Positions 6,506 through 53,493 of a stretch of 64,000 nt of DNA are shown piece by piece (position 1 is the stretch's first letter; every line of letters starts with the position of its first letter). A model generated the notes under the pieces. That model was not told the DNA's origin, did not search any database, and worked only from the letters and a program-made list of their open reading frames with translations. The DNA comes from Bacteroidota bacterium. GTDB lineage: Bacteria > Bacteroidota > Ignavibacteria > UBA10030 > UBA6906. The DNA lies in NCBI GenBank assembly GCA_036397975.1, contig DASWHW010000099.1, forward strand, positions 700-64,699, given 5' to 3'. A program made the position numbers and the translations under genes.

Positions 6506-8614
6506 ATGAAGATAACGAAAGAACTCCGTATCGGGGAAGAGACACTAAGTCTTGAGACGGGAAGATTTGCCAAACAGGCCGACGGTGCGGTGATGGCCCG
6601 AATGGGCGATACGATGGTGCTGGCAGCAGTGGTTGCATCGAAAAAACCGAAAGAAGGAATTGACTACTTTCCTCTCCAGGTGGAATATCGAGAGAAAGCT
6701 GCATCCGCTGGAAAAATCCCCGGCGGATTTTTCAAGCGTGAAGCGCGCCCTACCGAAAAAGAGATCCTATCCTCCCGGCTGATTGACAGGCCGATTCGGC
6801 CGATGTTTCCCGAGTGGTTTCAGTGCGAAACACAGGTTATGGTCACCGTTTATTCATCCGATCAGGAACACGATGGCGATATTTTAGGCGCTGTTGCTGC
6901 GTCCGCTGCGTTATCAATTTCCGATATCCCGTTTCCCGAGCCCATTGCGGAAGTCAGAGTAGGCCGCGTCGAGAAAAAACTTGTCATCAATCCAACATTC
7001 TCCCAGCTCTCCACCAGCGATATGGATGTCATCGTCGCGGGTACGGAAAGTTCGATCGTCATGGTTGAAGGAGAAGCGCACGAGATTTCTGAAGACGAAA
7101 TGCTGGAAGCGCTGGCATTTGCACATGGGTATATCAAGCAGGTGTGCCAGTTGCAACGTGATCTTGCAAAAGAGTGTGGGCGTGCAAAGCGCCCACCCGC
7201 GGATAAGCAGGAAGACAATGAGCTGAAAAGTGCTGTCCAGAAACTTGTTGGCAATCGCCTTTCGGAGTTGGCTCTGACGCCACTCACGAAGGAAGATCGC
7301 GCGAGTCGCACTACAGCGATTTACGAAGAGGTGAACGCCGCATTGGCTGAGCAATTCCCGGAGCAAGATGCGGCGATAGATTCAACGCTTCACGACGTAG
7401 AATACCACGCCATGCGTGAAACCATTCTGTCAAAGGGTAAAAGACTTGATGGGAGAGGAACAAAAGATATACGAATGATCACTATTGAAACAGGAATCCT
7501 CCCGCGTGCACACGGCTCTTCAATTTTTACACGCGGTGAAACCCAAAGCCTCACAACCATGACGCTTGGCACTAAACTCGACGAGCAAATCATCGACGGC
7601 CTCTTGCCCGATTCAACGAAGCGCTTCATGTTGCACTACAATTTTCCTCCATTTTCCGTCGGTGAAGTTGGCAGGCTTGGATCAACAGGCCGTCGTGAAA
7701 TAGGCCACGGCAATCTTGCCGAACGCGCCATCAAGATTCTCCTGCCCGACGAGTCGTCATTTCCCTATACTGTGAGACTAGTGTCCGATATTCTCGAATC
7801 GAACGGTTCCTCCTCCATGGCAACGGTCTGTGCCGGAAGCCTTGCTCTCTTTCAAGGCGGCGTGCCGCTGAAAAGGGCGGTCGCTGGAATTGCAATGGGG
7901 CTTGTGAAGGAAGGTGATCGGGTGGCGATCCTCAGCGATATCCTCGGCAACGAAGATCACCTCGGAGATATGGACTTCAAGGTGGCCGGTACGCGGAACG
8001 GAATTACGGCATTCCAGATGGACATCAAAATTCAAGGCATTTCCCTTGAGATCATGAAGAATGCACTGGAACAGGCAAAGGACGGTCGCCTTCATATCCT
8101 GAACAAGATGGATGAGGCTATTTCGAGACCGAGCAGCGATCTTTCATCCTTTGCTCCTCGGCTTACCACCTTGAAGGTGCCAGTTGATATGATCGGCGCA
8201 GTCATCGGCCCTGGCGGGAAGATGATCCGTCAGATCGTGAAGGACAGTGGGGCGGAAGTCAACATCGAAGACGACGGCACCGTCGTGGTTGCTGCTACCT
8301 CGAAAGAGTCCGCCGACATCGCAATAAATGCGATTAAGCGTATAACTGAATTGCCTGAGGTCGGCAAGATATATCATGCCGTCGTCAAGAAAGTGACCGA
8401 CTTCGGCGCGTTTGTTGAATTCCTTCCGGGGAAAGAAGGTCTCGTCCACGTTTCTCAGCTTGACGTGAAACGTGTGAACAAGCCATCAGACGTTGTGAAG
8501 GTCGGTGATGAGTTTGATGTGAAGATCACTGACAAGGACGAACAAGGCCGCTACAAGCTTTCACGAAAGGTTCTGATGATGGAGGAGAGCAAAGGAAACC
8601 CGGTAGAGGCTTAG
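6506..8614 (+). CDS. pnp: Polyribonucleotide nucleotidyltransferase (PNPase)
   Basis: Two RNase PH domains followed by KH and S1 domains (C-terminal GKIYHAVVKKVTDFGAFVEF). A GAGGAGAG ribosome-binding site precedes the ATG at 6506. The ORF track starts at 6458 and is likely over-extended. Confidence 0.93.
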   Translation: MKITKELRIGEETLSLETGRFAKQADGAVMARMGDTMVLAAVVASKKPKEGIDYFPLQVEYREKAASAGKIPGGFFKREARPTEKEILSSRLIDRPIRPMFPEWFQCETQVMVTVYSSDQEHDGDILGAVAASAALSISDIPFPEPIAEVRVGRVEKKLVINPTFSQLSTSDMDVIVAGTESSIVMVEGEAHEISEDEMLEALAFAHGYIKQVCQLQRDLAKECGRAKRPPADKQEDNELKSAVQKLVGNRLSELALTPLTKEDRASRTTAIYEEVNAALAEQFPEQDAAIDSTLHDVEYHAMRETILSKGKRLDGRGTKDIRMITIETGILPRAHGSSIFTRGETQSLTTMTLGTKLDEQIIDGLLPDSTKRFMLHYNFPPFSVGEVGRLGSTGRREIGHGNLAERAIKILLPDESSFPYTVRLVSDILESNGSSSMATVCAGSLALFQGGVPLKRAVAGIAMGLVKEGDRVAILSDILGNEDHLGDMDFKVAGTRNGITAFQMDIKIQGISLEIMKNALEQAKDGRLHILNKMDEAISRPSSDLSSFAPRLTTLKVPVDMIGAVIGPGGKMIRQIVKDSGAEVNIEDDGTVVVAATSKESADIAINAIKRITELPEVGKIYHAVVKKVTDFGAFVEFLPGKEGLVHVSQLDVKRVNKPSDVVKVGDEFDVKITDKDEQGRYKLSRKVLMMEESKGNPVEA

Positions 8615-8670
8615 TCATTCCGAGAAGAAGAATCTTTAGCGCTGTTGCGTTGAGGAAACTGGATTGAAGA

Positions 8671-8700
8671 AACGCTCCGCACCGCGGGGCGTTTTGTTTT
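8671..8700. terminator. Putative bidirectional rho-independent terminator between the convergent genes pnp and bshC
   Basis: The hairpin AACGCTCCGC-acc-GCGGGGCGTT is followed by TTTTGTTTT. Confidence 0.5.
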
Positions 8701-10342
8701 ACATCTTGAAGATTTGGTGCTTGAATCCGGCAATGTCCAACTCGCCGTCAAGCCATCGAACCAGCTCACTCCCGTATCGATTCATGAAGTAAAGAGGGGA
8801 GAGCGATCGCTCTTGAAGCTCGCCATGTGGCAGCAATGCGCTCGATGCCTTTTCGATTTGGTTGACGACAACTTCATTCCCCCTCTTTTGTGCCTCAATT
8901 GCCTTTCCCTTCAGAACTTCAAGACTCTGTTCCATTTTCTTCTCAACGCTTACCAGAGGTCCAAGGAGAGTCTTGTCGACTTCCCGTAAGCCGAACTCCA
9001 ATTCGTCGATCGCGTGCTTGAACTGAGTGGCAGCCTCACCGAACAACGAGTCCAGCTTGACATCTGCTACTTGTTCGAGGACGCTGGCTGTAAGCTGCTC
9101 TGCGGTTGATTCAAAGAAGTCAGAGATGGTGACATCATATTTCTCGAGGGTCTTGATTGTTCGCTCCGTGATGAACGATGCGCTCGCACGCGGATATACA
9201 ATCGGTTGCTGAACACCAAACATCCTGTAGACAGGTGTTAATTGGGCGTTGTACGCAATTTCTGAAGGGCCTCCAACGTACACCAGAGTAGGGAGCAAAG
9301 TGTCTTGGACTATTGGACGCAGTACCACATTGGGACTGAGCAACTCCGGAGTCTCGTGTGCAATCCTGAGTAATTCATCCCGCGACATGAAGTGTCTCGT
9401 CCCCTTGAGACTGAAATCCTCCTCCCGCGGGTTGATCGCGTATCTTCCTCCCTTGTGAAACATGAAGAGGTTGATTGACTTCGGCTTTACCTGAGCATGA
9501 TACTTCTTTTCCAACTCTGCACTCTGATCTATCACCAATTGTGATGTCCGCGGGAATTCCTCAATTTCTTTCACGAAAAGGGGAGATGCTAGTCGCTTCA
9601 AGTCTGGGTCATTTCCTGATAGGAAAATCAATCCGTATCCCGAAAAAAGATGGTTCATCCATCCAACAAACGCTTGGTTAAAAGATTTCCCCTCTGCGTA
9701 ATGTGTTGCCAGAGGCTTGAGAATATCCTGCGTATACTCAGAACTTGGCATCGATGACGCCAGTTCTTTATGCACACTCTGGATGTTTGGATCAAAAACC
9801 AGTTCCCCGACCGGCCCAACATTCTTTTCATTCTTTTCGCCACCTATGAGATACTCTATTCGCTGACTCTGGTTTTGGGTGTTGACGATATAGACATGAT
9901 TCATTTCCTCAAAGTCATGATCTTCCCCCTCAACCCAAAAGACCGGTACAAAATCACTCTGGGGATACTGCTTCTTGAGTTTTTGCGCCAGTTTGATTGT
10001 TGTCAGTGTTTTGAAAAGAGTGTACAGTGGCCCTCCCAACAAACCGACCTGCTGTCCCGTAACGATGGCAAACGTGGAGGGCTTTTTAAGCAACTCAATC
10101 TTCCCAAAGGTCTCGGCCTCGCATCCAAAGTGCTCGTTCTGTCGCTTCAGAATGTCGGCAAGCTGGTTCCTCTCGCGCTGTGATTTTGCCACCTGCTTCA
10201 TGGCCTGTTCGTATGATGAGCTCAGGCGAAAATCGAAGGGAAAGAAACGCTTGACTGCCTCAAAGTTGTAAATAAAATCATTAAACAGATCTGAAAACCC
10301 ACCGGCGGAATCGGGAAGTTTGTTGTATTCGATCCAGGTCAT
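8699..10342 (-). CDS. bshC: Bacillithiol biosynthesis cysteine-adding enzyme BshC
   Basis: 547 aa, the length and N-terminus (MTWIEYNKLPDS...) typical of the BshC/YllA family. Confidence 0.7.
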   Translation of the reverse strand: MTWIEYNKLPDSAGGFSDLFNDFIYNFEAVKRFFPFDFRLSSSYEQAMKQVAKSQRERNQLADILKRQNEHFGCEAETFGKIELLKKPSTFAIVTGQQVGLLGGPLYTLFKTLTTIKLAQKLKKQYPQSDFVPVFWVEGEDHDFEEMNHVYIVNTQNQSQRIEYLIGGEKNEKNVGPVGELVFDPNIQSVHKELASSMPSSEYTQDILKPLATHYAEGKSFNQAFVGWMNHLFSGYGLIFLSGNDPDLKRLASPLFVKEIEEFPRTSQLVIDQSAELEKKYHAQVKPKSINLFMFHKGGRYAINPREEDFSLKGTRHFMSRDELLRIAHETPELLSPNVVLRPIVQDTLLPTLVYVGGPSEIAYNAQLTPVYRMFGVQQPIVYPRASASFITERTIKTLEKYDVTISDFFESTAEQLTASVLEQVADVKLDSLFGEAATQFKHAIDELEFGLREVDKTLLGPLVSVEKKMEQSLEVLKGKAIEAQKRGNEVVVNQIEKASSALLPHGELQERSLSPLYFMNRYGSELVRWLDGELDIAGFKHQIFKM

Positions 10343-10524
10343 GAGGAAGTATGCGATTGTGGATGAAGGGTTGGCATGAAGAACTTAGGTGGAAAAATAT
10401 AAGGGAATGATTGAGGAGAAGCAACGAATTCTCTGACATTGAGAAACTTGCGATATGTGAGTGCATCAGATCAACCTTGGAAATCATATTGAATTTTCGT
10501 ACGTTCAAGCGAATTTTTCTATGA

Positions 10525-12493: not shown

Positions 12494-13530
12494 ACCGTTT
12501 GGGGCGGGTCATAACCTGGCTGGGCTTGGCGGCCAGTATAACTTTTACGATAATGTTCTTTTATCGCCCGGAGCCGGGAGAACAATCCTTCGCTGTACCG
12601 GTTGCTGGCAACTCGACCGTAGTACGATTCCTGGCAGTGGGAGATATCAACCTCGGGAGGTTGGCGGGACAGAAGATTCTTGGCGGTGATACGCTTTTTC
12701 CGTTTGAGAATATAGCAACTACGCTCAAGGAATATGATCTGGTCTTTGGCAATCTGGAATCGCAGTTGTCCAACCAGGATGGTGAGACTCAACACCCGGA
12801 CAACAACTACATTTTCACTGGTCCTCCGGCTGGTGCAGTATCGTTACACCGAGCAGGTTTTCACGTAGTCTCAACGGCGAACAACCATGCTCTTGATTAC
12901 GGGTATGCAGGATTGTCAGAAACGATCCGTTATCTGCGTGCGAACTGGGTCGAATCGGTTGGAACGAGCGAACACATGGATTCACTCTACCGTCCTCTCT
13001 TGATGGTAAGAAAAAATATCCGGTTCGCATTTTTTGCCTGTACGGAAATCATGAACACGGCCGATAGGTCGTGGAGCAAGGTAGTGTGTAAAGCTGATAC
13101 GACATTGCTCTTGCCGGAAATCCGTTTTTGGAAAGACTCCGTTGATGTAGTGATTGTCAGTTTCCATGGAGGGACAGAGTATGGGGAGGAGGCGTCGCCG
13201 GGAACGCTCTGGTTTGCCAATTGCGTTCTTGTCGCTGGGGCACATGTGTTTCTCGGTCATCATCCTCATGTGTCCTACGGAATCATCGAGGATCATGGGA
13301 GGTTGATCGTTCCTTCGCTGGGAAACTTCGTCTTCTTGCAGCCGCAGCGTTATTGGGCTCAAAGAAGCTTTGCGCTCGAGATTGAGTTTGAGAAAACCGG
13401 AGAAAATATTGTGCTCACAAAATATCGTCCGCTGCCAATACGATGCGGACTACAGCCCGAGTTCCTTCCTCAAGGGGAGGAAGCCATGATGATAGCGCAG
13501 AGAATTCAATCGTTTTCGCGAGTTATGTAA
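12490..13530 (+). CDS. CapA/PgsA-family metallophosphatase-like protein (poly-gamma-glutamate capsule synthesis-like)
   Basis: Has an N-terminal TM anchor and the motifs VGDINLGR, NLES, ANNHALDYG and HGGTEYG. Confidence 0.7.
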   Translation: MNRLGRVITWLGLAASITFTIMFFYRPEPGEQSFAVPVAGNSTVVRFLAVGDINLGRLAGQKILGGDTLFPFENIATTLKEYDLVFGNLESQLSNQDGETQHPDNNYIFTGPPAGAVSLHRAGFHVVSTANNHALDYGYAGLSETIRYLRANWVESVGTSEHMDSLYRPLLMVRKNIRFAFFACTEIMNTADRSWSKVVCKADTTLLLPEIRFWKDSVDVVIVSFHGGTEYGEEASPGTLWFANCVLVAGAHVFLGHHPHVSYGIIEDHGRLIVPSLGNFVFLQPQRYWAQRSFALEIEFEKTGENIVLTKYRPLPIRCGLQPEFLPQGEEAMMIAQRIQSFSRVM

Positions 13531-14390
13531 TGTCGGAGAATACCGTGGCAAAATATTTATTGTACCTAATACCTCTCTTCATGATTTTCGTTGGGGGATG
13601 CGGTTCATCAGAGGCGACTAAAGAAGTGTCTGTTGAAGAACGGTTCAAGGAGGCGATGGAGCAATTTAATGATCGAGACTATCTCGACGCCATCAATGAA
13701 TTTAAGGCTATCAGTCTCCAGTATCCGGGAAGCGCTTACGCGGATGATGCCCAATACTATCTCGGGGAATGTCATTTCAAGCGAGGTGAATTCCTCCTCG
13801 CAGCATATGAATATGGAGATATGAAGCGATCGTTTCCGGCGAGTTCATTGGTGCCTGACGCCCAGTATAAGTTAGGACTCTCCTATTATGAGCTATCTCC
13901 TCCCGCAAGACTGGATCAGCGATATACAACAAAGGCAAAAGATGAACTGCAGGCGTTCGTCGAGTATTACCCGTCGCATGAAATGGCACCGGATGCAGAG
14001 GCTAGAATTAGAGAATTGACAGACAAGCTCGCGGAGAAAGCATATAATAGCGCTAAGCTCTATCAGCGGATGGAGCGTTACCGCGCCGCACTTCATTATC
14101 TGGACGAAATTACCGAACGGTATCACGATACCAACTTTGCACCTCTTTCGTATCTCACCAAAACAGAAATCGAAATTTCACGCAAGCGTTACCGTTCGGC
14201 AAAGGAGACGGTCTCAAAATTCATTTCCCTCTTTCCCAACAGTGTTTTGCGAGCCCAGGCTGATCGGCTGCTCGAAGAGGCAGAAAACGGGTTACGCAGT
14301 GGTGATGATCGTTCGAGCAGTGTCACGAGCGGAACATCCTCCGGGGCTGACGTATTCCTGCATGGTCTTTCGTCCTCAACGGACCGATGA
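13530..14390 (+). CDS. bamD: Outer membrane protein assembly factor BamD (TPR lipoprotein)
   Basis: Lipoprotein signal with a lipobox (..FMIFVGGCGSS) followed by TPR-like repeats (YYLGECHFKRGEF, YKLGLSYYEL). The ATG overlaps the capA stop (TAATG). Confidence 0.75.
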   Translation: MSENTVAKYLLYLIPLFMIFVGGCGSSEATKEVSVEERFKEAMEQFNDRDYLDAINEFKAISLQYPGSAYADDAQYYLGECHFKRGEFLLAAYEYGDMKRSFPASSLVPDAQYKLGLSYYELSPPARLDQRYTTKAKDELQAFVEYYPSHEMAPDAEARIRELTDKLAEKAYNSAKLYQRMERYRAALHYLDEITERYHDTNFAPLSYLTKTEIEISRKRYRSAKETVSKFISLFPNSVLRAQADRLLEEAENGLRSGDDRSSSVTSGTSSGADVFLHGLSSSTDR

Positions 14391-14863
14391 CCATGGACCC
14401 GAAGCTTGTCAAAGACTCGCAGGTCTTTTCAACAGAACTTGTTCTTCCGAACGATACGAATCAACTCGGAAACCTGCTTGGCGGCCGGCTCATGCATTGG
14501 ATCGATATTTCGGCAGCAATTTCTGCACAGCGGCATACCGGGAGGGTCTGCGTCACCGCGTCCGTGGACGAGTTGAACTTTCATCACCCGATTAAACTGG
14601 GGGAAGTTGTCACGTTACAGTCATCTGTGAACCGGACATTCCGCTCATCGATGGAGATCGGTGTTATCGTGACTGCCCAGGCGCTTGGTGGAAAGGAACG
14701 TCTCGCCAACAACGCCTATCTGACATTCGTTGCAATTGATGAAAATGGTCGGCCAGTTCCCGTTCCTCCTATTGTCCCAAAATCCAGCGAAGAGCAGCGT
14801 CGCTTCGAGGAGGCTCTTCAAAGACGCGAGGCTCGATTGAAACATCGACACAAAGTTGAATAA
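14387..14863 (+). CDS. Acyl-CoA thioesterase (hotdog fold, YciA-like)
   Basis: 158-aa hotdog-fold protein. Its start overlaps the bamD stop by 4 nt. Confidence 0.6.
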   Translation: MTMDPKLVKDSQVFSTELVLPNDTNQLGNLLGGRLMHWIDISAAISAQRHTGRVCVTASVDELNFHHPIKLGEVVTLQSSVNRTFRSSMEIGVIVTAQALGGKERLANNAYLTFVAIDENGRPVPVPPIVPKSSEEQRRFEEALQRREARLKHRHKVE

Positions 14864-14881
14864 TCACTTCCATCGCTGACA

Positions 14882-17098
14882 TTGGCTATTCCCGTTGGAG
14901 AAAAAGAAATTGTTCCCGGTGCGTACATTCGTCGAGTCCTATTAGGCCTGATTCAGGTGCAAGTCATCTGTGTCCTTCAGGCATACTCCGAGCGGCCGTA
15001 CGCTTCATTCGGATCTGTTTCAGGGGTGGCGGTTGATTTCATTCCAAAGGACATATGCATTTTGCCCACCCACCCTCTCATTCAGTTGACGGTGAGTGCA
15101 AGGAACAAACCCGTTCTTCATTTTTTTTCCTTTTCGCGCGATGGTGTCCTTTCACTGCAGTCAGCCATTACCGTAACCGCTCCCGCCCGCTCGATGAAAG
15201 TCCTCGATCTCACCGCAGGACGGACTCCAGATATCGTTCTGCTTCATGAACACACTCTCTCAATTCTATCTATAGACGCTCTGGAGAATCAGCCGCGTAT
15301 TGTCTCCTTTCCAGGATCGGGAGACGACTTCACTGCGGCTGATATCAATGGCGATGGACACCCCGATTTTCTTCTCTACGGAAAGAACTCCGCTGGGATA
15401 GCGACAATGATAGGTCGGGCAGGAAAATCATTTGTAGAAGGTCCTCTTCTCTTTCCTGATATATCCGTCAGTGATCTCGTTTGCAAGGATCTGAACGGCG
15501 ATGGGATTACGGATATCATTCTGTGCAATTGGCTTTCGAATCAACTCGTTGTCTTTCTCGGCATCGGCAGAGCAGTTTTCTCTGAGCAAATCACTATTGA
15601 TCTCCCCGGCGAGCCGGAGAACATGTCTCTTGTTTCTCTTCCAAAGAAACGAGAATTCAGGATTGCCGTGAGTGTCCCTGATCAGCGAGAAATCATCATT
15701 TATGATGGAGATGCCCTTGGCGATTTTCAGCAGAGGGTAGTCATTCACGTGCCGGATGCCCCCCATGGGGTGCGTTTGGTCGATACGAACGGGGACAACT
15801 TGTTTGATGTTGTTACATCGACGAAGAGTGGAATCGTCGTCAGCCTCGCCATGTCGGGCACACACTATTCTGAACCTGTGTTGTATGGCGCCACCATTAA
15901 CCCGTCGTCGTGGGATGTCGGCGATATCGACGGTGATAAACTCCCAGATCTGGTTGTCGGTGAAGCGTCAATGAAAAAGATAGTCGCGCTCGGAAATACC
16001 AAGCATGCCGCGTCAATTCGATGGCCCGATAATTATTCAGTCGGCAACAATCCCACGGGAATAGCCACCCGTGATTTTGATGGAGATGGGTTGATCGATA
16101 TCGCCGTTGCAAATACACGGTCGGAATCTGTATCGATTCTCTATAATGCGGGTGGAGGAAGGTTGCGCGGACAAGATGTTATTCCTGTTGGCAAAGAGCC
16201 TTTGTTTCTCCGCACCGCAAGCGTCGAGCGGGGAGCCGAAAAAACTCTGGTGATCTCGCATTCCCATGTCGATCAGGCCACCGTTCTTCATCTGAATCAG
16301 GATTCTGCGGAGGCACGATCATCGCTGGTCCCGACCGATAACAACCCGTATGTTGTCTTTGCAAAGGATGTTTCTGCCGGAGGTCAACTGGAAATGCTAG
16401 TACGTTCCACCAAGCAACGCTCGGTTTCGCTGTCACTCTTCCAGCAACTTGGCGGCTCAGAATTCCTCGAAAGAAGCGTCCGATCAATTCCCAGCGCAAA
16501 CATCATTGCGTTAACAGTCGGCGATCTGACGAAGAATGGATCGTATGATCTTGTAGTTGCCTCGATGGAAAACTCATCGAAAAGCGTGGTGGTTTCGGTG
16601 GCAGAAGGAGATTCATCGTTCACTTTTCGCCCCGCACAATCGGTGTTTTCGTATAGTGATTCCACCCGGTCTACTGTTGCATTGCTCTCTGGCTTCGTCA
16701 CCAGTCATGAATTCAAGGATATTGTCGTTGTCAAGGGAAAGCCGGAATATCAGATCGGGATTGCATCTGGATTCAGTTTTCTTACTTATCACGATTCTTT
16801 GATCTGGATTGATCACGTCAACCCCCTGCATGAGGATGCAATCATTTTCAAAGACGTCGACTTCGACAATATTACTGATATCGTACTACCAGACGCTTCA
16901 CAAAAAATGGTCATGGTTTACTACGGGAAGAAGGGAGGGGGGTTCGAAAATGGGTCGAGTGTGTTTGAGGCCGATGATATTCAGTCAATTCGCATTGCGC
17001 CAATCAAATCGCCACCAGCACTCGACCTCATTGTGTCGCGAGGCGAACGAGGCATGGTCTCTCTTGTACCTCAACCGTTCAGGAGAACAGGGAAGTGA
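14882..17098 (+). CDS. FG-GAP/VCBS repeat-containing protein
   Basis: Several DxNGDGxxD calcium-binding repeats (DINGDGHPDFLL, DLNGDGITDIIL, DIDGDKLPDLVV, DFDGDGLIDIAV). The start codon is uncertain (TTG at 14882). Confidence 0.6.
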   Translation: MAIPVGEKEIVPGAYIRRVLLGLIQVQVICVLQAYSERPYASFGSVSGVAVDFIPKDICILPTHPLIQLTVSARNKPVLHFFSFSRDGVLSLQSAITVTAPARSMKVLDLTAGRTPDIVLLHEHTLSILSIDALENQPRIVSFPGSGDDFTAADINGDGHPDFLLYGKNSAGIATMIGRAGKSFVEGPLLFPDISVSDLVCKDLNGDGITDIILCNWLSNQLVVFLGIGRAVFSEQITIDLPGEPENMSLVSLPKKREFRIAVSVPDQREIIIYDGDALGDFQQRVVIHVPDAPHGVRLVDTNGDNLFDVVTSTKSGIVVSLAMSGTHYSEPVLYGATINPSSWDVGDIDGDKLPDLVVGEASMKKIVALGNTKHAASIRWPDNYSVGNNPTGIATRDFDGDGLIDIAVANTRSESVSILYNAGGGRLRGQDVIPVGKEPLFLRTASVERGAEKTLVISHSHVDQATVLHLNQDSAEARSSLVPTDNNPYVVFAKDVSAGGQLEMLVRSTKQRSVSLSLFQQLGGSEFLERSVRSIPSANIIALTVGDLTKNGSYDLVVASMENSSKSVVVSVAEGDSSFTFRPAQSVFSYSDSTRSTVALLSGFVTSHEFKDIVVVKGKPEYQIGIASGFSFLTYHDSLIWIDHVNPLHEDAIIFKDVDFDNITDIVLPDASQKMVMVYYGKKGGGFENGSSVFEADDIQSIRIAPIKSPPALDLIVSRGERGMVSLVPQPFRRTGK

Positions 17099-18729
17099 AG
17101 TATTCCGTGCGCATTGCGCTGAAGATAGCGGTTATTCTGATCTGTGTCTTCACCACCTCTGTGGCACAAATCAACTCCTCACGCACGACCACAGCTTTCG
17201 ACCTTATCCTCTCGATTGACTCCTCAAGTACCATCAAATGCGGTCTCCCTGTCCTTGCCCAGCAGTGGGAATCCGAGCGCTCGTTTCTCCTCGACCTCAC
17301 ACGTCCAGTAATGCAAAAGACCAGGATGGTCGGAGGCTTCCGTGTTCATTATGATACGGTGGGGGCAAATGTCCCCGCGATGTTGAATGTCAACAAACAG
17401 CGCATTCCCGGGTCGCATGAAGAGTACATAGACTCCGTCCTCGCGATTATGCAAACAGTCGTCGCCACTGAAACCATAATTCTGGGTTACACAGCTGCTC
17501 CTCAAGATGGCATTGAAGGGGGAGGGCCTGAATATGATATTTATGTTGAAGAACTTTCAAATTTGTACGGGGTAACTATTCCGGAGAATCAGCTTGACAC
17601 AAAACCAGACGGTGGCCGGTTCACGTCCTACCTTGAAATAGACAACGACTTTATCTTCGTTTTCCCATTTGCGAACAAAGGTCTCCCGGCGATGCGTGTA
17701 ACACTCGCCCATGAATATCATCATGCAATCCAGCTAGGTAGCTACGGCTTCTGGTCTCGTGACAGATATTTTTACGAAGTGACATCCACGTGGATGGAAG
17801 ATGTCCTTTTCACTGAGGTGAACGACTACCTTCAGTACTTGCCATCCCACTTTCTCAATCCGCAGCGTGCCTTCACTACCTCCGATGGAGCAACAGAATA
17901 TGCACGATGCATTTGGGGACACTATCTTGAGAAACGATTTTCTCCTGCTGTGATGCGGATGTCATGGGAGGAGATGAGAAATGTTCCGAGCCTGGAGGCC
18001 ATGGATAACGCACTCCGGAGTCCGCCATTCTTTTCGACATTTCGGTCAGCTTTCACTGAATGGTCGGAGTGGAATTATTATACAGGGTCACGGGCAGATT
18101 CAGTCAGGTATTATCCCGAGAGCCCATTGTACCCGCCGGTGAATCAAACGATTGTGTCGATCACATCGTCGACTGGACAATCAACAGGATCTCTTCCTGC
18201 CATGGCTTCACGATATTTCGATATCCGCTCCTCCACCGAAACCGTAAACCTCATATTATCAAACATCAACTTTGAGAGCGCTGTTCTGAATAATACAACA
18301 GCTTTTCCCTATACGTACCGTTTCAGCAATTCGAAACTGGGGAGCGATTACCGGCAAGCAGGAACGAGCTTGTTCGTCAAACTTGATGTCCCTGATATTT
18401 CGAATTGGTATACTTCTGGACTCCCAACGTTCTTCCCCGAAGGAGTTGCTTTCCCCAATCCATTTATTACCAGTGGCAAGGGTGTTATAAACATCCCGAT
18501 CAATTCTGCCATTTCGGTCGCATATTCCCTTTCTGTTTTCTCGAGCGACATGGACCGGACCTTCGACTTTACAGGCAGTTCCCATTATGTGACACCACCG
18601 GGGACGCAGGCTGCACAATGGGATGGGACGACGGAAAGGGGTGAAAGGGCTTCGTCGGGGGTTTACATGTATGTTCTGGAATACGGCGGGGAAATACACA
18701 AGGGAAAAATAGTTCTCATTCAGCAATAG
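17095..18729 (+). CDS. Secreted putative zinc metallopeptidase (HExxH) with a T9SS type-A C-terminal sorting domain
   Basis: Signal peptide (MKYSVRIALKIAVILICVFTTSVAQ), an HEYHH motif, and a C-terminal ~85 aa matching the Por-secretion tail pattern (FPNPF...WDGT...SGVYMYVLEYGGEIHKGKIVLIQ). The GTGA start overlaps the upstream stop. Confidence 0.65.
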   Translation: MKYSVRIALKIAVILICVFTTSVAQINSSRTTTAFDLILSIDSSSTIKCGLPVLAQQWESERSFLLDLTRPVMQKTRMVGGFRVHYDTVGANVPAMLNVNKQRIPGSHEEYIDSVLAIMQTVVATETIILGYTAAPQDGIEGGGPEYDIYVEELSNLYGVTIPENQLDTKPDGGRFTSYLEIDNDFIFVFPFANKGLPAMRVTLAHEYHHAIQLGSYGFWSRDRYFYEVTSTWMEDVLFTEVNDYLQYLPSHFLNPQRAFTTSDGATEYARCIWGHYLEKRFSPAVMRMSWEEMRNVPSLEAMDNALRSPPFFSTFRSAFTEWSEWNYYTGSRADSVRYYPESPLYPPVNQTIVSITSSTGQSTGSLPAMASRYFDIRSSTETVNLILSNINFESAVLNNTTAFPYTYRFSNSKLGSDYRQAGTSLFVKLDVPDISNWYTSGLPTFFPEGVAFPNPFITSGKGVINIPINSAISVAYSLSVFSSDMDRTFDFTGSSHYVTPPGTQAAQWDGTTERGERASSGVYMYVLEYGGEIHKGKIVLIQQ

Positions 18730-18732
18730 AAG

Positions 18733-19353
18733 ATGATCGAGTTCGAAGCACACGCAATAACCAAAACCTTTAACCGTCGCTCGATCTTTCGCGATATCTC
18801 AGTTCGGGTGCAGTCCGGAGAAATCCTTCGTGTCATCGGCCAAAACGGAGCTGGCAAATCGACTTTCGTCAAGATACTTGCGCAGGTTCTCACTCCCACC
18901 TCGGGTGAAGTGAGGTTTTCTCTTGAAGGCCACGCCGTTAAGAGGTATTTGCATAACCTCATCGGTTTTGTCTCGCCCTATATGCAGTTATACGACGAAT
19001 TTACAGCAGAGGAGAATCTCCTGCTTTCGTTATCGATGCGGGCACGGCCGGATGACATGACGGCGGTGAAGAATCTTTTGGGCCGAGTATCGCTTGGCGG
19101 TCGTGGTGACGATCAGGTCCGCACCTTTTCCTCCGGTATGAAACAACGGTTGAAGTACGCCTTTGCTCTCATCCATCAGCCACCGATCCTTATTCTTGAC
19201 GAGCCGATGTCAAACCTGGATACGGAAGGAATAGCAACTGTTCGCCAGGTCATGGAGGAGCAACAGAAGCGTGGGATACTTGTTGTTGCCACGAATGACC
19301 ATACGGATTTAGAAAACTTTGATCATCAGGTGGATCTTGGTGGAAGATCATAA
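18733..19353 (+). CDS. ccmA: Heme exporter ATP-binding protein CcmA
   Basis: Walker A (GQNGAGKST), an ABC signature (SSGMKQRL) and Walker B (ILILDEP). First gene of a ccm cluster. Confidence 0.85.
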   Translation: MIEFEAHAITKTFNRRSIFRDISVRVQSGEILRVIGQNGAGKSTFVKILAQVLTPTSGEVRFSLEGHAVKRYLHNLIGFVSPYMQLYDEFTAEENLLLSLSMRARPDDMTAVKNLLGRVSLGGRGDDQVRTFSSGMKQRLKYAFALIHQPPILILDEPMSNLDTEGIATVRQVMEEQQKRGILVVATNDHTDLENFDHQVDLGGRS

Positions 19354-20032
19354 AAAACTAAGAACATTGTTAATTTCCACGAAGGCAGTGTTTTTGAAAG
19401 ATTGGCGCTCCGAGTTGCGAACGAGATACGCATTAAGCGCGCTGGTGATGTTTGTCCTAACGACGATTGCGATTATTGTCTTTGCCTTCGGGGGTGAATC
19501 TCCTTCTCAGGAGGTCCTTGCCGGTGTCCTGTGGGTCATCATTTTCTTCTCGGGAATGTCCGGGCTTGCAAGGACTTTCGTCGCTGAAGAGGAGAGAGGA
19601 ACTTCCCTGACACTACAATTGTTGGCTACCCCAACCGCTGTCCTCTTTGGCAAGCTCGCCTTCAATGTGGTCCTCGTTCTTATAGTCAACACAATGGCAG
19701 TCCTTCTGTTTTTGTTCTTCTTTTCTTCGTTCCGCGTCGATTCTGTTGGGCTCTTTGTCACAACTCTTACTTTGGGAAGCATTGGACTTGCTTCCGCAAG
19801 CACAATTATTGCGGCAATCATTGCACGTGCCAACACGAAAGGGTCTCTGTTCCCGGTTCTATCGTTACCACTCTTGCTTCCACTTCTCATGACGGTTATT
19901 CATGCAACGACGCTTTCTTCGGAAGGGGCTTTTTTCAGCGAGGGTTTGGATGACTTTAGGATATTAGTTTCTTATATTGGTGCCGTCACAGGGGTATCAT
20001 ACATATTATTTGACTATGTCTGGAAAGATTAA
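19319..20032 (+). CDS. ccmB: Heme exporter membrane protein CcmB
   Basis: Six-TM protein lying between ccmA and ccmC. It overlaps ccmA by 35 nt if the ATG at 19319 is used, and the alternative TTG start at 19367 avoids the overlap. Confidence 0.75.
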   Translation: MIIRWILVEDHKKLRTLLISTKAVFLKDWRSELRTRYALSALVMFVLTTIAIIVFAFGGESPSQEVLAGVLWVIIFFSGMSGLARTFVAEEERGTSLTLQLLATPTAVLFGKLAFNVVLVLIVNTMAVLLFLFFFSSFRVDSVGLFVTTLTLGSIGLASASTIIAAIIARANTKGSLFPVLSLPLLLPLLMTVIHATTLSSEGAFFSEGLDDFRILVSYIGAVTGVSYILFDYVWKD

Positions 20033-20744
20033 GAATAGAACATTGAAGCAGATCCTCGGGATCTGGACCACGGCCGTTATTATTCTCGGCCTTGGCTTGC
20101 CAATGGTCGCTCAGCCGTCTCATTGGGGGGAGCTTCCACTTATCCCGGGATTGGAGCAACGCGCAAGAATTATCTTCTTCCATGTCCCGACCGCGTGGTT
20201 AAGCGTTATAGCCTTTCTGACCAGCATGTGGTTTGGAATCCGTTATTTGCGCAAGAAGAATCCACACGATGATATCAAGTCGGTCACGCATGCAGGACTT
20301 GGGCTTCTCTTTTGCATTCTGGCAACGGTGACTGGTTCGATTTGGGCGAAGTTCAATTGGGGTTCATTTTGGAACTGGGATCCTCGGGAGACGTCAATTT
20401 TCGTCCTCCTGTTGATTTATGGAGCCTATTTCGCACTCCGGTCGGCTATTGATGTTGAAGAGAAGCGAGCCACACTTTCTGCCGTATATTCCATTATCGC
20501 GGGGGTCATTGCTCCATTTTTTATCTTTGTCCTGCCAAGAATAACCGCGGGTTTGCATCCAGGCTCAGCAGACGATGTCAACTCGGGTCCTGTGGTAAGC
20601 TCAGGGGGCATGAATGCGACTATGCGAGTTATTTTCTACTCGTCGGTGGCAGCGTTCATGGGTATGTACTTATGGATGAGCAATCTTCATATCCGAGCGG
20701 TAACGCTCGTTCAGAGAAAAGAGCTAGAATCAGGCAAAGCCTAG
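20016..20744 (+). CDS. ccmC: Heme exporter protein CcmC
   Basis: Contains the WWD motif (WGSFWNWDPRETS). The start is chosen at the ATG at 20016; the ORF track starts at 19977. Confidence 0.85.
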   Translation: MSGKIKNRTLKQILGIWTTAVIILGLGLPMVAQPSHWGELPLIPGLEQRARIIFFHVPTAWLSVIAFLTSMWFGIRYLRKKNPHDDIKSVTHAGLGLLFCILATVTGSIWAKFNWGSFWNWDPRETSIFVLLLIYGAYFALRSAIDVEEKRATLSAVYSIIAGVIAPFFIFVLPRITAGLHPGSADDVNSGPVVSSGGMNATMRVIFYSSVAAFMGMYLWMSNLHIRAVTLVQRKELESGKA

Positions 20745-20753
20745 GAGGATACG

Positions 20754-20903
20754 TTGTACGAATTTCTGACTGCGAATGCACTATACGTTGTACTTTTGAT
20801 TGTGCTTGTAATATGGTTTGGTATTTATACTTACCTGTACAGACTTGAGGGGAAGCTCAAGCACCTCGAAGAGCTTTTAAAAGACCAAGGAGACGCTACA
20901 TGA
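20754..20903 (+). CDS. ccmD: Heme exporter protein CcmD (small single-TM protein)
   Basis: A 49-aa ORF that the track misses. TTG start, with an AGGAGG ribosome-binding site 5 nt upstream. It has one hydrophobic helix (ALYVVLLIVLVIWFGIY) and then a charged tail. Its TGA stop overlaps the ccmE ATG (ATGA). Confidence 0.6.
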   Translation: MYEFLTANALYVVLLIVLVIWFGIYTYLYRLEGKLKHLEELLKDQGDAT

Positions 20904-21292
20904 ATCCTAAGATCATCATTTCGGCGATCATCGTTGTTGCCTTCATCATCTTCGGTTCGTATTCATTTATGGATAGCAAACTCGAATACACGGATATCGC
21001 TGGAGCACTCAAGTCTCACAAGAAGGTGCAGTTGAAAGGTGAGTGGAATAAGGAGAAGTCTTCAGGCTTTAATCAGGAGAAAGCCCAATTCACATTCTAT
21101 CTTCGGGATGACAAGGGGGAGGAGTGCAAGGTGGTACTTGATGGCGCTGCCCCAAACAACTTTGAGCTGGCGATAAGTGTGGTAGCAAAAGGTCGCTTCA
21201 CGGAAGAAGGCTATTTCCACGCTACAGAAGTTTTAACGAAGTGTCCGTCGAAATATGAGGCAAACTCAGAAGAGGTCAACAAGAGTAGTTAG
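20900..21292 (+). CDS. ccmE: Cytochrome c-type biogenesis heme chaperone CcmE, CxxxY variant
   Basis: N-terminal TM helix and an OB-fold. The C-terminus EVLTKCPSKYE aligns with E. coli EVLAKHDENY, so Cys replaces the heme-binding His. Confidence 0.8.
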   Translation: MNPKIIISAIIVVAFIIFGSYSFMDSKLEYTDIAGALKSHKKVQLKGEWNKEKSSGFNQEKAQFTFYLRDDKGEECKVVLDGAAPNNFELAISVVAKGRFTEEGYFHATEVLTKCPSKYEANSEEVNKSS

Positions 21293-21326
21293 TTTTTGAT
21301 TGTTCATTTCCGTATAGGGAAACAAA

Positions 21327-23615
21327 ATGATTGGCGCACTTCTCGTAAAGATCGCCTTTGTAACATGCCTTATTTCCGTCCTCGCTTATATCCAGCATCT
21401 CCGTAGGGGGGAGGAGAATGTCCTCAAGATTGCCAGGTGGTTCTATCATTCAACGGTCATTACGATCCTTCTGTTTTCCGCCACGCTGCTGTACCTGATC
21501 CTCACGCACCAGTTTCAGTACACGTACATCTGGAGTTACAGCTCACGTGAACTTTCAACGCCTTTGCTTATTTCCACATTCTATGCGGGGCAGGAGGGAA
21601 GCTTCACACTCTGGCTATTGTACACGTCCATCATTGGTGTCTTCCTTCTCCGATACTCATCCCGAAAAGGTTATGAATCGGAAGTAATGCCAGTGTTTGG
21701 CTTGATTGTTCAGATGTTACTCTTGCTCATTGTTGTCAAGAGCCCGTTTACATTTGTGTGGGAGACCTGGCCCGGAGAAGTTCAAGCCGGCTTCGTGCCC
21801 GCGAATGGACGCGGCTTAAACCCGCTACTTCAAAATTACTGGATGGTAATTCATCCCCAGGTTCTATTCAGCGGTTTCTCGGCGATGGGCGTTCCCTACG
21901 CTTACGCTGTTGCCGCGCTTCTTAAGCGTGACTACAAGAACTGGATCAGACCAGCAACACCTTGGATCGTCTTTGGTGCCCTCATGCTTGGAATTGGGAT
22001 TATTATGGGAGGGTATTGGGCGTATGAGACGCTCGGATGGGGAGGCTATTGGGCATGGGACCCTGTTGAAAACTCCTCGTTGGTGCCATGGCTCTTCTCT
22101 GTGGCGTCAATCCACACCATTCTTTCACAAAGAAAAAGTGGAGCATTCATCCGCACGAACCTTGTCCTTGGGATGCTCTGCTTTCTCACTGTTTTGTATT
22201 CAACATTCTTGACTCGTAGCGGAGTTCTTGGCGATACATCCGTTCACTCTTTCGTAACGCCTGGCATGTGGGTCTATTGGTTGATGATTGGGATGCTCGT
22301 GCTGTTTACTTCTCTCGGGCTTGGGTTGTTGATACGACGAATGAAGGAGATGCCGAAAGTTCCTGTACTGCATGATTATTACTCCCGGGAGTTCGCGTTG
22401 TTTCTGGGATCTGCAACGCTCGTGGTCATCGCTGTTTTCATCACAGTTGGGACTTCTTCTCCGATCATTACGGAGATACTTCAAGGGAAGAAGTCGGCGG
22501 TCGACATCTCTTTCTACTCGAAGACTGTGCTCCCACTTGGAATCCTCATCGGCATCCTCACTGGAATAGCACAGCTTCTGTGGTGGACCAAATCCGACAA
22601 GAAGGAGTTTTTCACAAGTTTGCTTTGGCCTACCGTCCTTTCTCTCGCGACGACTGCTTTTCTCGTCACCTTGAGAGTCCATGATGTCCGGCTGGCGCTC
22701 TTTATCTTTGGCTCCTCGTTCGCACTGTTTTCCAACATCCAGGTCGGCTCACGAATCGTGAAGGGAAATCCAAAATATGCCGGTGGTGCAATAGCGCATG
22801 TAGGGCTTGCCGTTATGTTCTTTGGATTCGTTTCGTCCTCCGAATACGATTCGAAACAAACTGTGTCCCTCACTCAGAACGAACCAGTTGAAGCGCTCGG
22901 CTACACCCTGACTTATAACGGGTACAAACCTATTGACGATGAAAAGTATGCATTTCAAATCAAGATCGAAAAAGATGGCAAAGAATACCACGCCTCACCG
23001 ATAATGTATTACAGCAAGTTCAACGAAGGTCTGATGAGAAATCCAGATGTCATCAACTTGAAGACAAAGGACTTCTATGTCGCCCCTCTCTCGTTGGAAT
23101 CTGCAAGCGACGCCGAAAAGAAATCGACGGCAACATTCCAAATGAAAAAAGGTGATACTGCGACCATGGGATCCATGGAGATTACCTTTAACGAATTTGA
23201 CTTTCCAGTCATGGAAAAGGCAGCGATGCTCGAAGGTCGGAAAGTGACGATCGGGGCGAAGCTCACGGTGAAAGAATACGGAAAGAATCCTGAGGAACTT
23301 AAGCCATCAAAAGTAATGGAGAACGGTGCCGCGACCGATCAGCCCGCACGCTACAACGATCGCTACGAGTTCACGATCGCTTCAATGCAACCCGACCGCG
23401 ATAACAAGGACAACTCAAAGGTTGAGATCGCAGTGAAAGATCTCATGGCAGCAAGCGTTCAAAAAGCAAAAGGGGATGTGCTTGTAGTTGAAGCCAGCGT
23501 CAAGCCCTTTATCAACCTTGTTTGGTCGGGGGTGATTATCTTATTTCTCGGATTAGGAGTAACGATTGTTCGGAGAGCGCAAGAGGCAAGGTTGAAGCAT
23601 GAGAACACGGCCTAA
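21327..23615 (+). CDS. ccmF: Cytochrome c-type biogenesis protein CcmF (heme lyase)
   Basis: 762-aa polytopic membrane protein with the WWD domain (WGGYWAWDPVENSSLVPW). Confidence 0.9.
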   Translation: MIGALLVKIAFVTCLISVLAYIQHLRRGEENVLKIARWFYHSTVITILLFSATLLYLILTHQFQYTYIWSYSSRELSTPLLISTFYAGQEGSFTLWLLYTSIIGVFLLRYSSRKGYESEVMPVFGLIVQMLLLLIVVKSPFTFVWETWPGEVQAGFVPANGRGLNPLLQNYWMVIHPQVLFSGFSAMGVPYAYAVAALLKRDYKNWIRPATPWIVFGALMLGIGIIMGGYWAYETLGWGGYWAWDPVENSSLVPWLFSVASIHTILSQRKSGAFIRTNLVLGMLCFLTVLYSTFLTRSGVLGDTSVHSFVTPGMWVYWLMIGMLVLFTSLGLGLLIRRMKEMPKVPVLHDYYSREFALFLGSATLVVIAVFITVGTSSPIITEILQGKKSAVDISFYSKTVLPLGILIGILTGIAQLLWWTKSDKKEFFTSLLWPTVLSLATTAFLVTLRVHDVRLALFIFGSSFALFSNIQVGSRIVKGNPKYAGGAIAHVGLAVMFFGFVSSSEYDSKQTVSLTQNEPVEALGYTLTYNGYKPIDDEKYAFQIKIEKDGKEYHASPIMYYSKFNEGLMRNPDVINLKTKDFYVAPLSLESASDAEKKSTATFQMKKGDTATMGSMEITFNEFDFPVMEKAAMLEGRKVTIGAKLTVKEYGKNPEELKPSKVMENGAATDQPARYNDRYEFTIASMQPDRDNKDNSKVEIAVKDLMAASVQKAKGDVLVVEASVKPFINLVWSGVIILFLGLGVTIVRRAQEARLKHENTA

Positions 23616-24046
23616 GGAGACAGGAGCTTCACTCCTAAACCAAAACGAAACACCATCTCTCCACCGTACCACGCGCCAAGTACTATGGCACTCACACCTA
23701 GAACATAAAGTCCCCAGAACAGAGAACGCATTCGTTCGGGAAGCTTCGTTTTCAGCCCTACCCTCCAAAACAGCAAAACAATAAAAGCCGATGAGCTAAG
23801 GAAAGCGAACTGCTCGTGAGCCTCAAGCGTCTGCAGGGCAACACTGTCAACAACAATGCTATCCCTGGCAAATAGACCAGTGGCGACCGCCGCGACGAGG
23901 AACACTGTCCCAACAGATTGGCACCACCATCCAACCCGAGTCAATTCAACTTTCTTAAGCACAACACCCGAAGCGTCGAAGAAAAAAGCAACGATAAGAA
24001 GTGCTATCGGGAAATGAACGATTGTTGGATGGATATTGGGCATCAA
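23612..24046 (-). CDS. DUF2231-like membrane protein
   Basis: 144 aa with four TM helices and an N-terminal HPTIVHFPIALL motif. Its 3' end overlaps the ccmF 3' end by 4 nt (convergent). Confidence 0.45.
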   Translation of the reverse strand: MMPNIHPTIVHFPIALLIVAFFFDASGVVLKKVELTRVGWWCQSVGTVFLVAAVATGLFARDSIVVDSVALQTLEAHEQFAFLSSSAFIVLLFWRVGLKTKLPERMRSLFWGLYVLGVSAIVLGAWYGGEMVFRFGLGVKLLSP

Positions 24047-24766
24047 TCACGCCGTCAACGAAAAAAGATCTGAAATTCCTACCATGTTTACGGAATAAAA
24101 AGGCTCGCCGTACTTCCTTCCGATGCGATCCCCATAATACTCATACCGTGCCCGTAAAAAGTCCAGAAAATCAGGCGTGCTCAAAAATGTTTCCCGTTCT
24201 TTGCTTGATGGATCGTAAAACTGCGATTTGAATGCCTTCACACTCTCCATCCTCTGCTCAAATTGTTCCGAAATGTCTACGACAAACGACGGCTCGAATT
24301 CAAAAGTCTGCATGTAATGGTAGAACGCCCGAGGGCGGAAAGGTTCCTGCTTTTTCCCGCCTCGTGCTGTCTCGAGTTTTTCAAGACCTGAAGAAAACCA
24401 TGCTTCGCGGCAAAGCCGGTGCGCATGTTCATGATCGGGGTGTCGTTCGAGCCAATGCGGAAACAGAAGAATTTGTGGCCGGACATGACGAATAACTTCA
24501 ATGACTGCGGCCTTCGTTGCAGGCGTTATTTCAATGCTGCCATCGGGAAGGCCCAGATTCTCGCGGAAATCAACTCCAATGATCTCTCCTGCTGCCTTTG
24601 CTTCGCTCTCCCGTGTTTCCGGCGTACCCCGAGTACCAAGCTCACCGCGGGTTAAATCCAGGATCCCAATCTTTTTGCCTTGCTTCTTCAATTTTATGAG
24701 AGTACCGCTGCACGTCAGTTCCACATCATCAGGATGCGCTCCAATCGAAAGAACATCAAGTGTCAT
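24047..24766 (-). CDS. bshB1: Bacillithiol biosynthesis deacetylase BshB1 (LmbE/PIG-L family)
   Basis: Contains the motifs AHPDDVELTCSGT and HPDHEH typical of LmbE-family deacetylases, and has a BshB1-like length (239 aa). Confidence 0.7.
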   Translation of the reverse strand: MTLDVLSIGAHPDDVELTCSGTLIKLKKQGKKIGILDLTRGELGTRGTPETRESEAKAAGEIIGVDFRENLGLPDGSIEITPATKAAVIEVIRHVRPQILLFPHWLERHPDHEHAHRLCREAWFSSGLEKLETARGGKKQEPFRPRAFYHYMQTFEFEPSFVVDISEQFEQRMESVKAFKSQFYDPSSKERETFLSTPDFLDFLRARYEYYGDRIGRKYGEPFYSVNMVGISDLFSLTA

Positions 24767-36173: not shown

Positions 36174-36246
36174 GCACCCATGGCTCAATTGGTAGAGCAA
36201 CTGACTCTTAATCAGTGGGTTCCAGGTTCGAGTCCTGGTGGGTGCA
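36174..36246 (+). tRNA. tRNA-Lys (anticodon CTT)
   Basis: Hand-folded cloverleaf: acceptor stem GCACCCA/TGGGTGC, D-loop with GG, anticodon loop CTCTTAA, T-arm CCAGGTTCGAGTCCTGG and discriminator A. The 3' CCA is not encoded. Confidence 0.85.
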
Positions 36247-39171: not shown

Positions 39172-39540
39172 GGGGATGACTTGGTTTCGACGGGGATGGG
39201 GATGGTCCAGATTGCATACCGTGCTCTCCGAGTTGCACGATAATAAAGCGGAAAAACATAAGTGCAGACTACAACTACGCACTGGCTGCTTAATTAACGT
39301 TATGTAGCCCGTCTCGCGGAGGCTCTCCAGTTGGCTTCCAAAGAGGCGCCGACTTAGGCTGGATAGACGGCTATTTCCCTTTTCGCTAGTCGTTGAAGCC
39401 GGGAAACCGGATAAGAAGAGGTTGCCACGGCAGGATCTTGTTTGTCGGAGTCGCCGGGGCGAGCGGTGAAAGACAGACTAAGTATGTAGTAGTCTCGATG
39501 GTCTTCTCTTCGGACGCGGGTTCGACTCCCGCCATCTCCA
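39172..39540 (+). ncRNA. ssrA: tmRNA (transfer-messenger RNA, SsrA)
   Basis: 5' end GGGGATGACTTGGTTTCGACGGGG, a 3' tRNA-like T-arm GGACGCGGGTTCGACTCCCGCC, and the acceptor arm CATCTCC pairing with the 5' GGGGATG. An internal tag ORF ends ...GCA GAC TAC AAC TAC GCA CTG GCT GCT TAA (ADYNYALAA-stop). Confidence 0.85.
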
Positions 39541-39550
39541 CATTATTTCC

Positions 39551-53469: not shown

Positions 53470-53493
53470 GGCTCCTCCTTAAGTTTATTCTCT

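Follow-up and report, generated by a model that had tools for sequence, protein, structure and literature searches.

A cysteine-type CcmE in a putative System I* operon for cytochrome c maturation from an uncultured, Ignavibacteria-like Bacteroidota bacterium

The variant of the cytochrome c maturation (Ccm) pathway called System I* is reportedly treated by Allen et al. in 2006 (FEBS Lett) and by Goddard et al. in 2010 (JBC). In this variant, a cysteine replaces the heme-binding histidine of the heme chaperone CcmE (Stevens et al. 2011, PMC3601427). System I* was first found in archaea and Desulfovibrio, along with the loss of CcmH, and the genome-wide absence of CcmH was its original definition, later found not to be universal: about one third of the bacteria with a cysteine-containing CcmE (Cys-CcmE) still have CcmH (PMC3601427). 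The carriers named are delta-proteobacteria, Chloroflexi, and Firmicutes, and CPSKY is the commonest variant CcmE motif; the Desulfovibrio operon, when present in E. coli, yields holocytochrome c in the absence of both CcmH and CcmG, and heme is bound covalently by the CcmE of this operon (PMC3601427). In Methanosarcina acetivorans, the cysteine of the CXXXY motif is required and CcmABCEF are sufficient (PMC9084895). Here we describe a 64-kb stretch of contig DASWHW010000099.1 (the window), which comes from an uncultured bacterium of the Bacteroidota resembling Ignavibacteria and contains ccmA, -B, -C, -D, -E, and -F as six tightly packed open reading frames (ORFs) on the same strand (18733-23615). 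Their sequences make it very probable that they constitute a complete and functional System I* operon.

CcmE consists of an N-terminal transmembrane (TM) anchor and a domain homologous to the solved CcmE soluble domains, and its C-terminal motif is TKC115PSKY119. The codon for Cys115 is TGT (21242-21244). In a MAFFT alignment with E. coli CcmE, Cys115 stands under His130 and Tyr119 under Tyr134 of the E. coli protein; hence, the position that holds the histidine of the HxxxY motif in canonical System I is taken by cysteine. HMMER matched TKCPSKY to AKHDENY in the structure from Shewanella (1J6Q) and to TKCP in that from Desulfovibrio vulgaris (2KCT), and these sequences give the same register as MAFFT independently. 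The nearest histidine of CcmE, H107, is 8 residues upstream and does not correspond to E. coli H130. An earlier reading of the window, made from the sequence alone and without database searches (the sequence-only reading), had proposed this CxxxY substitution and had named a conserved histidine at the H130 position, or a sequencing error in the TGT codon, as what would overturn it. Our alignments reveal no such histidine. Could the codon be wrong? The identical 130-residue CcmE is encoded on at least 10 contigs, and the five places shown belong to five different samples. Moreover, the motif [VLI]LTKCPSKY is present in all of the 120 best homologues (69 to 100% identity) and in every one of 80 related genomic loci, the most divergent of which has 47% identity. 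The cysteine is therefore genuine and no sequencing error.

CcmE has a second cysteine, Cys76 (21125-21127), in the motif GEECKVVL, which is kept in the closer relatives and missing from the distant ones; the CcmE protein has two cysteines in 38 of the 80 related loci and one in 39. An equivalent of Cys76 is also missing from the segment of D. vulgaris CcmE that HMMER aligned. We considered Cys76 as a disulfide partner and rejected it, since only the closer half of the relatives has this residue.

How common is the cysteine form? Our scan covered one genome per GTDB species and used the patterns LTKCPSKY/KKVQLKGxW. At least 556 species-representative genomes encode a CcmE relative with these patterns, and the best 80 of them, which provided the related loci (about 20 kb each, with 10-kb flanks, and 1,337 ORFs altogether), are nearly all labeled Ignavibacteria, Ignavibacteriota, or Bacteroidota. 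CcmE and CcmF of the window have 100% identity to proteins carrying the NCBI label "MAG TPA: Bacteroidota bacterium," and the closest species-level genome among the matches listed is that of Ignavibacteria bacterium SZUA-525, with 89% CcmE identity. Occurrence in so many species makes the cysteine form the norm of a large clade and no local peculiarity, and the rarity assumed in the sequence-only reading, which had spoken of a minority form, does not hold. Cys-CcmE is the lineage norm in the Ignavibacteria-like Bacteroidota, and among the sequences examined it seems to be the sole CcmE type of the clade. A literature search found no mention of Cys-CcmE in Bacteroidetes or Ignavibacteria, and it may be that no publication has yet extended the variant to these groups. 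In databases, the proteins already bear the names CcmE and CcmF. That the Ccm machinery of this group is active is supported by Melioribacter roseus, a cultured species of the Ignavibacteria in which CcmF is expressed along with respiratory c-type cytochromes (PMC5492636).

The gene content of the operon was directly observed, and all six genes, contiguous as the sequence-only reading had described them, were matched by curated Pfam or NCBIfam profiles. The motifs of CcmA are intact, with Walker A (GQNGAGKS) at residue 36, the signature (FSSGM) at 132, and Walker B (ILILDEP) at 152. CcmC has its WWD motif, WGSFWNWDPRE, at residue 115, and H56 (FFHVP) and H181 (GLHPG) are candidate heme-ligand histidines. 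For ccmB there are candidate starts at 19319, 19340, and 19388; the TTG at 19319 gives the longest ORF, and public gene calls inconsistently use 19340 (230 amino acids [aa]) or 19388 (214 aa). The small ccmD is uncalled in public annotations of identical DNA, which leave a 155-nucleotide "gap" at 20745-20899 (loci L081 to L085). Its product scores above the cut-offs of both PF20077 CcmD_alt (24.0 bits; cut-off, 23.5) and TIGR04391 (25.2 bits; cut-off, 24), an AGGAGG sequence precedes the TTG start by 5 nucleotides, the overlap with ccmE is ATGA, and tblastn found the position between ccmC and ccmE kept in 72 of the 80 related loci. The hidden TTG-start gene recognized in the sequence-only reading is thus real. 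A scan for sigma-70 promoters was uninformative: sites were no commoner than in shuffled sequence, and the consensus used probably does not suit Bacteroidota; terminator-like sites were somewhat commoner than in shuffles, yet none was located at the operon ends.

CcmF has the features of a CcmF/NrfE heme lyase, namely, the WWD motif (WGGYWAWDPVEN, residues 238 to 249), two periplasmic and two transmembrane histidines (H176, H263, H307, and H491), and a CcmF_C domain. The WWD and histidine residues are at least 98% conserved among 116 full-length homologues. The protein aligned to CcmF of Thermus thermophilus (6ZMQ, residues 24 to 607) with an E-value of 7e-68, and it falls below the NCBIfam equivalog cut-off (245 versus 569 bits), which makes it a member of a divergent subfamily. 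It did not reach the cut-off of the ResB/CcsB profile of System II (PF05140, 15.7 bits; cut-off, 24.6).

Comparison with the described systems places the locus closest to the System I* of Desulfovibrio desulfuricans and D. vulgaris, with which it shares Cys-CcmE with CPSKY, the presence of all of CcmA to CcmF, and the lack of an operon-linked ccmH or ccmG. It differs in phylum (Bacteroidota/Ignavibacteria), in the low similarity of CcmE (18.8 bits to 2KCT by HMMER), in a CcmD of the CcmD_alt family, and in a CcmF with an enlarged periplasmic domain. The Ccm system of M. acetivorans likewise has a CXXXY-type CcmE; there, the cysteine is required, CcmH and CcmI are absent, and CcmG and CcdA are dispensable (PMC9084895). 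Archaeal systems, however, have no CcmD, and their CcmF is often split into two genes at scattered places in the genome, whereas the locus described here is a tight operon with CcmD and a single CcmF of 762 residues. A core of CcmABCDEF, WWD motifs in both CcmC and CcmF, four histidines in CcmF, and the tyrosine of the xxxY motif are common to this operon and System I of E. coli; the operon differs in having Cys115 in place of His130 and in that the E. coli operon contains ccmG and ccmH, both of which are needed. System II (CcsBA/ResBC) uses neither a CcmE chaperone nor CcmABCD, and the lyase in our operon is clearly CcmF. With a cysteine at the histidine position of CcmE and a core of ccmA, -B, -C, (-D), -E, and -F that is present and intact, the locus matches the described System I* down to the exact CPSKY motif and, as judged from these features, is a known kind of system. 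The likeness to the archaeal and Desulfovibrio variant seen in the sequence-only reading agrees with this assignment (PMC3601427, PMC9084895).

Where, then, are the thiol-redox partners? In canonical System I, ccmG and ccmH follow ccmF. Here, as the sequence-only reading had noted, a convergent DUF2231 gene and then bshB1 occupy that place. A motif scan of the window for thioredoxin-type CxxC, for the LRCxxC of CcmH, and for CXXCH yielded no credible ORF, since the few matches fell in short reading frames lying out of frame across real genes, and there is no candidate for ccmG, ccmH, ccdA, or dsbD within the 64 kb. The multi-TM proteins of the window outside the Ccm system, a resistance-nodulation-division (RND) pump, CvpA, and a Yip1-domain protein, include neither CcdA nor DsbD; the RND assignment was made by size, 12 TM helices, and the conserved 1,050- to 1,128-aa ORFs of related loci. 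A DUF4920 protein (170 aa; 52966-53478, minus strand) was considered as a thiol-redox candidate and rejected, as it has no CxxC motif. In the related loci, the motif scan found no LRCxxC CcmH-like gene among the 1,337 ORFs within 10 kb of ccmE, and their single thioredoxin-like gene is in one locus, 8.5 kb from ccmE. A tblastn search of the 80 loci with E. coli CcmG and CcmH gave no match at an E-value of ≤1e-4, though the sensitivity of this search is low. Within the window and the roughly 20 kb around ccmE of the 80 relatives, the lack of ccmG and ccmH is real and lineage-wide.

How might the operon work under these circumstances? By homology, CcmC would present heme to the membrane-anchored CcmE by means of its WWD motif and two histidines. 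CcmE would hold the heme covalently by Cys115 of CPSKY, which replaces the canonical histidine, and Tyr119 would be the likely axial ligand; attachment by Cys115 and ligation by Tyr119 are predicted from the experiments on D. desulfuricans and M. acetivorans. Holo-CcmE would be freed at the expense of ATP by CcmA and CcmB together with the small CcmD, and CcmF, with its four histidines and WWD motif, would take the heme and ligate it to CXXCH apocytochromes. Like its counterparts in Desulfovibrio and Methanosarcina, this lyase presumably has no need of CcmH, and the apocytochrome thiols could be reduced by unlinked thiol-disulfide proteins or need no reduction. We infer both the heme chemistry and the dispensability of CcmH and CcmG from these precedents.

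Several points weigh against a complete and functional System I* operon. No cytochrome c substrate gene lies within the window, which leaves Ccm activity to be inferred. The similarity to Desulfovibrio CcmE is low, and the cysteine form found here might be independent in origin and behave differently. Finally, CcmH and CcmG could be encoded beyond the inspected 64 kb, as CcmH is present in about one third of the bacteria with Cys-CcmE (PMC3601427). This last point leads to the rival explanation that survives best. In it, the operon represents the heme delivery half only, the required CcmH and/or a CcmG/ResA-type thioredoxin with CcdA are encoded elsewhere, and the absence we observe reflects gene arrangement and not mechanism. 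Bacteroidota commonly have CcdA and thioredoxins of the TlpA/ResA type, and the inspected DNA comprises 64 kb of this genome and 20 kb per relative. However, none of the 80 related genomes has a CcmH-like gene within 10 kb of ccmE, and the Desulfovibrio and Methanosarcina systems do not need CcmH (PMC3601427, PMC9084895). We regard the explanation as possible but, on balance, doubtful.

Another possibility concerns CcmF itself and its enlarged periplasmic domain. E. coli CcmF has 647 aa, and the protein described here has 762. It follows 6ZMQ up to residue 588, after which it has about 170 residues versus about 50 in Thermus. The domain was modeled confidently as all-beta (predicted local distance difference test [pLDDT] score, 86.5) and shows fold-level resemblance to the domains of CcmF and CcsB. 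The family of this domain comprises 468 clusters at 50% identity; among the 150 clusters listed, the full-length proteins have 730 to 900 aa with the domain at the C terminus, and the remainder are fragments. We tried the idea of an internal duplication within the domain and rejected it (hhalign probability, only 7.5%). Does the enlarged beta-domain replace CcmH/CcmI as the apocytochrome-binding platform, making CcmF a single-protein synthase like CcsBA of System II? The extra length of the domain in a confident model speaks for this explanation, as does the pairing of long CcmF with CPSKY CcmE, which was seen at 68 of the related loci and again at the distant L086. Against it, the extra segment (residues 590 to 720) is weakly conserved and, like the domain as a whole, contains no cysteine, so that it would be unable to substitute for the thiol chemistry of CcmH. 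The segment could at most be a binding platform, which is speculation, and we consider such a replacement of CcmH/CcmI unlikely. Even less should be staked on a more far-reaching hypothesis, according to which the CcmF of the clade (about 760 to 900 aa) is a single-protein synthase whose expanded CcsB-like domain captures the apocytochrome in place of CcmH/CcmI, which would put it structurally halfway from System I to System II, and Cys-CcmE had an origin of its own, separate from that of the forms in Desulfovibrio and archaea. The enlarged CcmF domain as such is a modestly new feature.

In some relatives, ccmF does not adjoin ccmE and unrelated minus-strand genes are found instead (L033, L041, L042, L043, L046, L055, L059, and L067); the lyase gene must be elsewhere in those genomes. 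One metagenome-assembled genome (MFD01476.bin.2.68) accounts for both L043 and L046, each a ccmA-to-ccmE locus. In L078, two multiheme genes, for proteins of 203 and 490 aa with four CXXCH motifs each, are situated between ccmE and ccmF (7650-9740). Their NrfH/NrfA-like sizes suggest that the single CcmF also serves a nitrite reductase-type substrate. Clusters of multiheme cytochromes, with up to 17 CXXCH motifs, adjoin the ccm genes in L058 and L060.

The coordinates of the operon and its neighbors are collected in Table 1. The sequence-only reading had placed the operon between two bacillithiol biosynthesis genes and had suggested an atypical route of reduction and heme handling. The placement is literally correct but uninformative. 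The bshC gene is upstream, 8.3 kb from ccmA, with eight unrelated genes between them, among which are those for glutamate dehydrogenase, PGA_cap, BamD, 4HBT thioesterase, FG-GAP, and HExxH proteins and an unannotated gene. bshB1 is on the opposite strand and is found near ccmF in 39 of the 80 related loci. It lies upstream of the DUF2231 gene with zero gap, and the two have the look of a two-gene unit converging on ccmF. The DUF2231 protein has conserved-looking histidines (H6, H11, and H77) in or near TM helices and no match in NCBIfam. Its gene is present in only 23 of the 80 loci, the closest ones, and in distant relatives its place is taken by a gene for a zinc-ribbon membrane protein or by a small lipoprotein gene beside a pump-like ORF of 1,050 to 1,128 aa. 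A family 4 (GT4) glycosyltransferase gene beside ccmF in L087 was considered as bshA and rejected (31 bits versus a cut-off of 273.7).

Could bacillithiol or the DUF2231 protein supply the reductant for the apocytochrome or heme and so tie the bsh genes to ccm? The recurrence of bshB1 near ccmF in about half of the loci and its abutment with the DUF2231 gene would fit such a link. However, both genes are on the strand opposite to the ccm genes, DUF2231 is limited to the closest relatives and replaced by unrelated genes elsewhere, bshC is remote, and the L087 glycosyltransferase is not BshA. Moreover, bacillithiol is a cytoplasmic thiol, and we know of no export route for it. The distribution of bshB1 and DUF2231 is as expected from inherited synteny and provides no evidence of a functional module. 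Given the distance of bshC, the strand of bshB1, and the restricted occurrence of DUF2231, a special bacillithiol-linked route is unsupported, and we judge it very improbable. An atypical route in general cannot be inferred from one window, and the variant has been published as working without CcmH and CcmG. The weakest alternative, that the Cys115 codon stems from faulty assembly or sequencing or that ccmE is decaying, is refuted by the identical CcmE on at least 10 contigs and the invariant cysteine in homologues and related loci, and its probability is negligible.

On the other side of the operon, the genes for BamD/YfiO, the 4HBT thioesterase, and the FG-GAP and HExxH proteins form a same-strand string (13530-18729) that leads into ccmA with gaps or overlaps of at most 18 nucleotides, the ATG of ccmA being 3 nucleotides past the stop codon of the HExxH gene. 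The FG-GAP and HExxH genes are probably cotranscribed with ccmA. The conserved gene order is FG-GAP, HExxH, and then ccmA-B-C-D-E-F; of the 80 loci, 53 have the HExxH gene and 51 have the FG-GAP gene upstream of ccmA, and ccmD and ccmF occur in 72 and 68, respectively. In the distant L086, the BamD, 4HBT, and HExxH genes are upstream of ccmA and the FG-GAP gene is absent. This deep conservation beside ccmA is modestly new, and nothing obvious connects the function of these genes with cytochrome c maturation. Elsewhere, the window holds a tmRNA gene (39172-39543; Rfam RF00023, 178.9 bits) and one tRNA gene (36174-36246).

Table 1. Positions and assignments of the ccm genes, sites within them, and neighboring genes in the window
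Feature	Coordinates	Strand	Assignment and remarks
ccmA	18733..19353	+	206 aa; ATPase subunit of the heme chaperone release ATP-binding cassette (ABC) complex; ABC_tran; TIGR01189, E-value 1e-32
ccmB	19319..20032	+	Membrane subunit, ~6 TM helices (hydropathy); PF03379 CcmB, 70.1 bits
ccmC	20016 or 20022 to 20744	+	242 aa from 20016; PF01578; TIGR01191, E-value 7e-28; overlaps the end of ccmB
ccmD	20754..20903	+	49 aa, TTG start; one TM helix; CcmD_alt family; between ccmC and ccmE
ccmE	20900..21292	+	130 aa; heme chaperone; PF03100, E-value 6e-16
Cys115-Pro-Ser-Lys-Tyr119 codons	21242..21256	+	Predicted covalent heme attachment Cys and axial ligand Tyr
ccmF	21327..23615	+	762 aa; heme lyase; PF01578 plus PF16327
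CcmF periplasmic all-beta domain	22839..23510	+	Residues ~505 to 728; ~135 aa longer than that of Thermus CcmF
DUF2231 membrane protein	23612..24046	-	PF09990, E-value 2e-22; convergent with ccmF, coding overlap of 4 nucleotides; neighbor only
bshB1	24047..24766	-	Bacillithiol biosynthesis deacetylase; TIGR04001, 292 bits (cut-off, 182.5); neighbor
bshC	8699..10384	-	PF10079, E-value 2e-112, plus PF24850
FG-GAP repeat protein	14882..17098	+	Directly upstream of the HExxH gene, tightly packed
MXAN_6640-family HExxH protein	17095..18729	+	Putative metalloprotease; possible type IX secretion system (T9SS) C-terminal domain

In summary, the finding is real but ordinary, and it leaves the current understanding of the Ccm pathway unchanged. 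It illustrates that annotation pipelines miss the small ccmD in operons of this kind. The documented range of System I*, which comprised archaea, delta-proteobacteria, Chloroflexi, and Firmicutes, is extended to a very large and mostly uncultured clade of Ignavibacteria-like Bacteroidota, and the view of Cys-CcmE as a rare oddity is weakened. The clade provides many natural sequences, along with cultured relatives such as Melioribacter, for studying by what route a thioether-type heme-CcmE bond is cleaved and how CcmF manages in the absence of CcmH.

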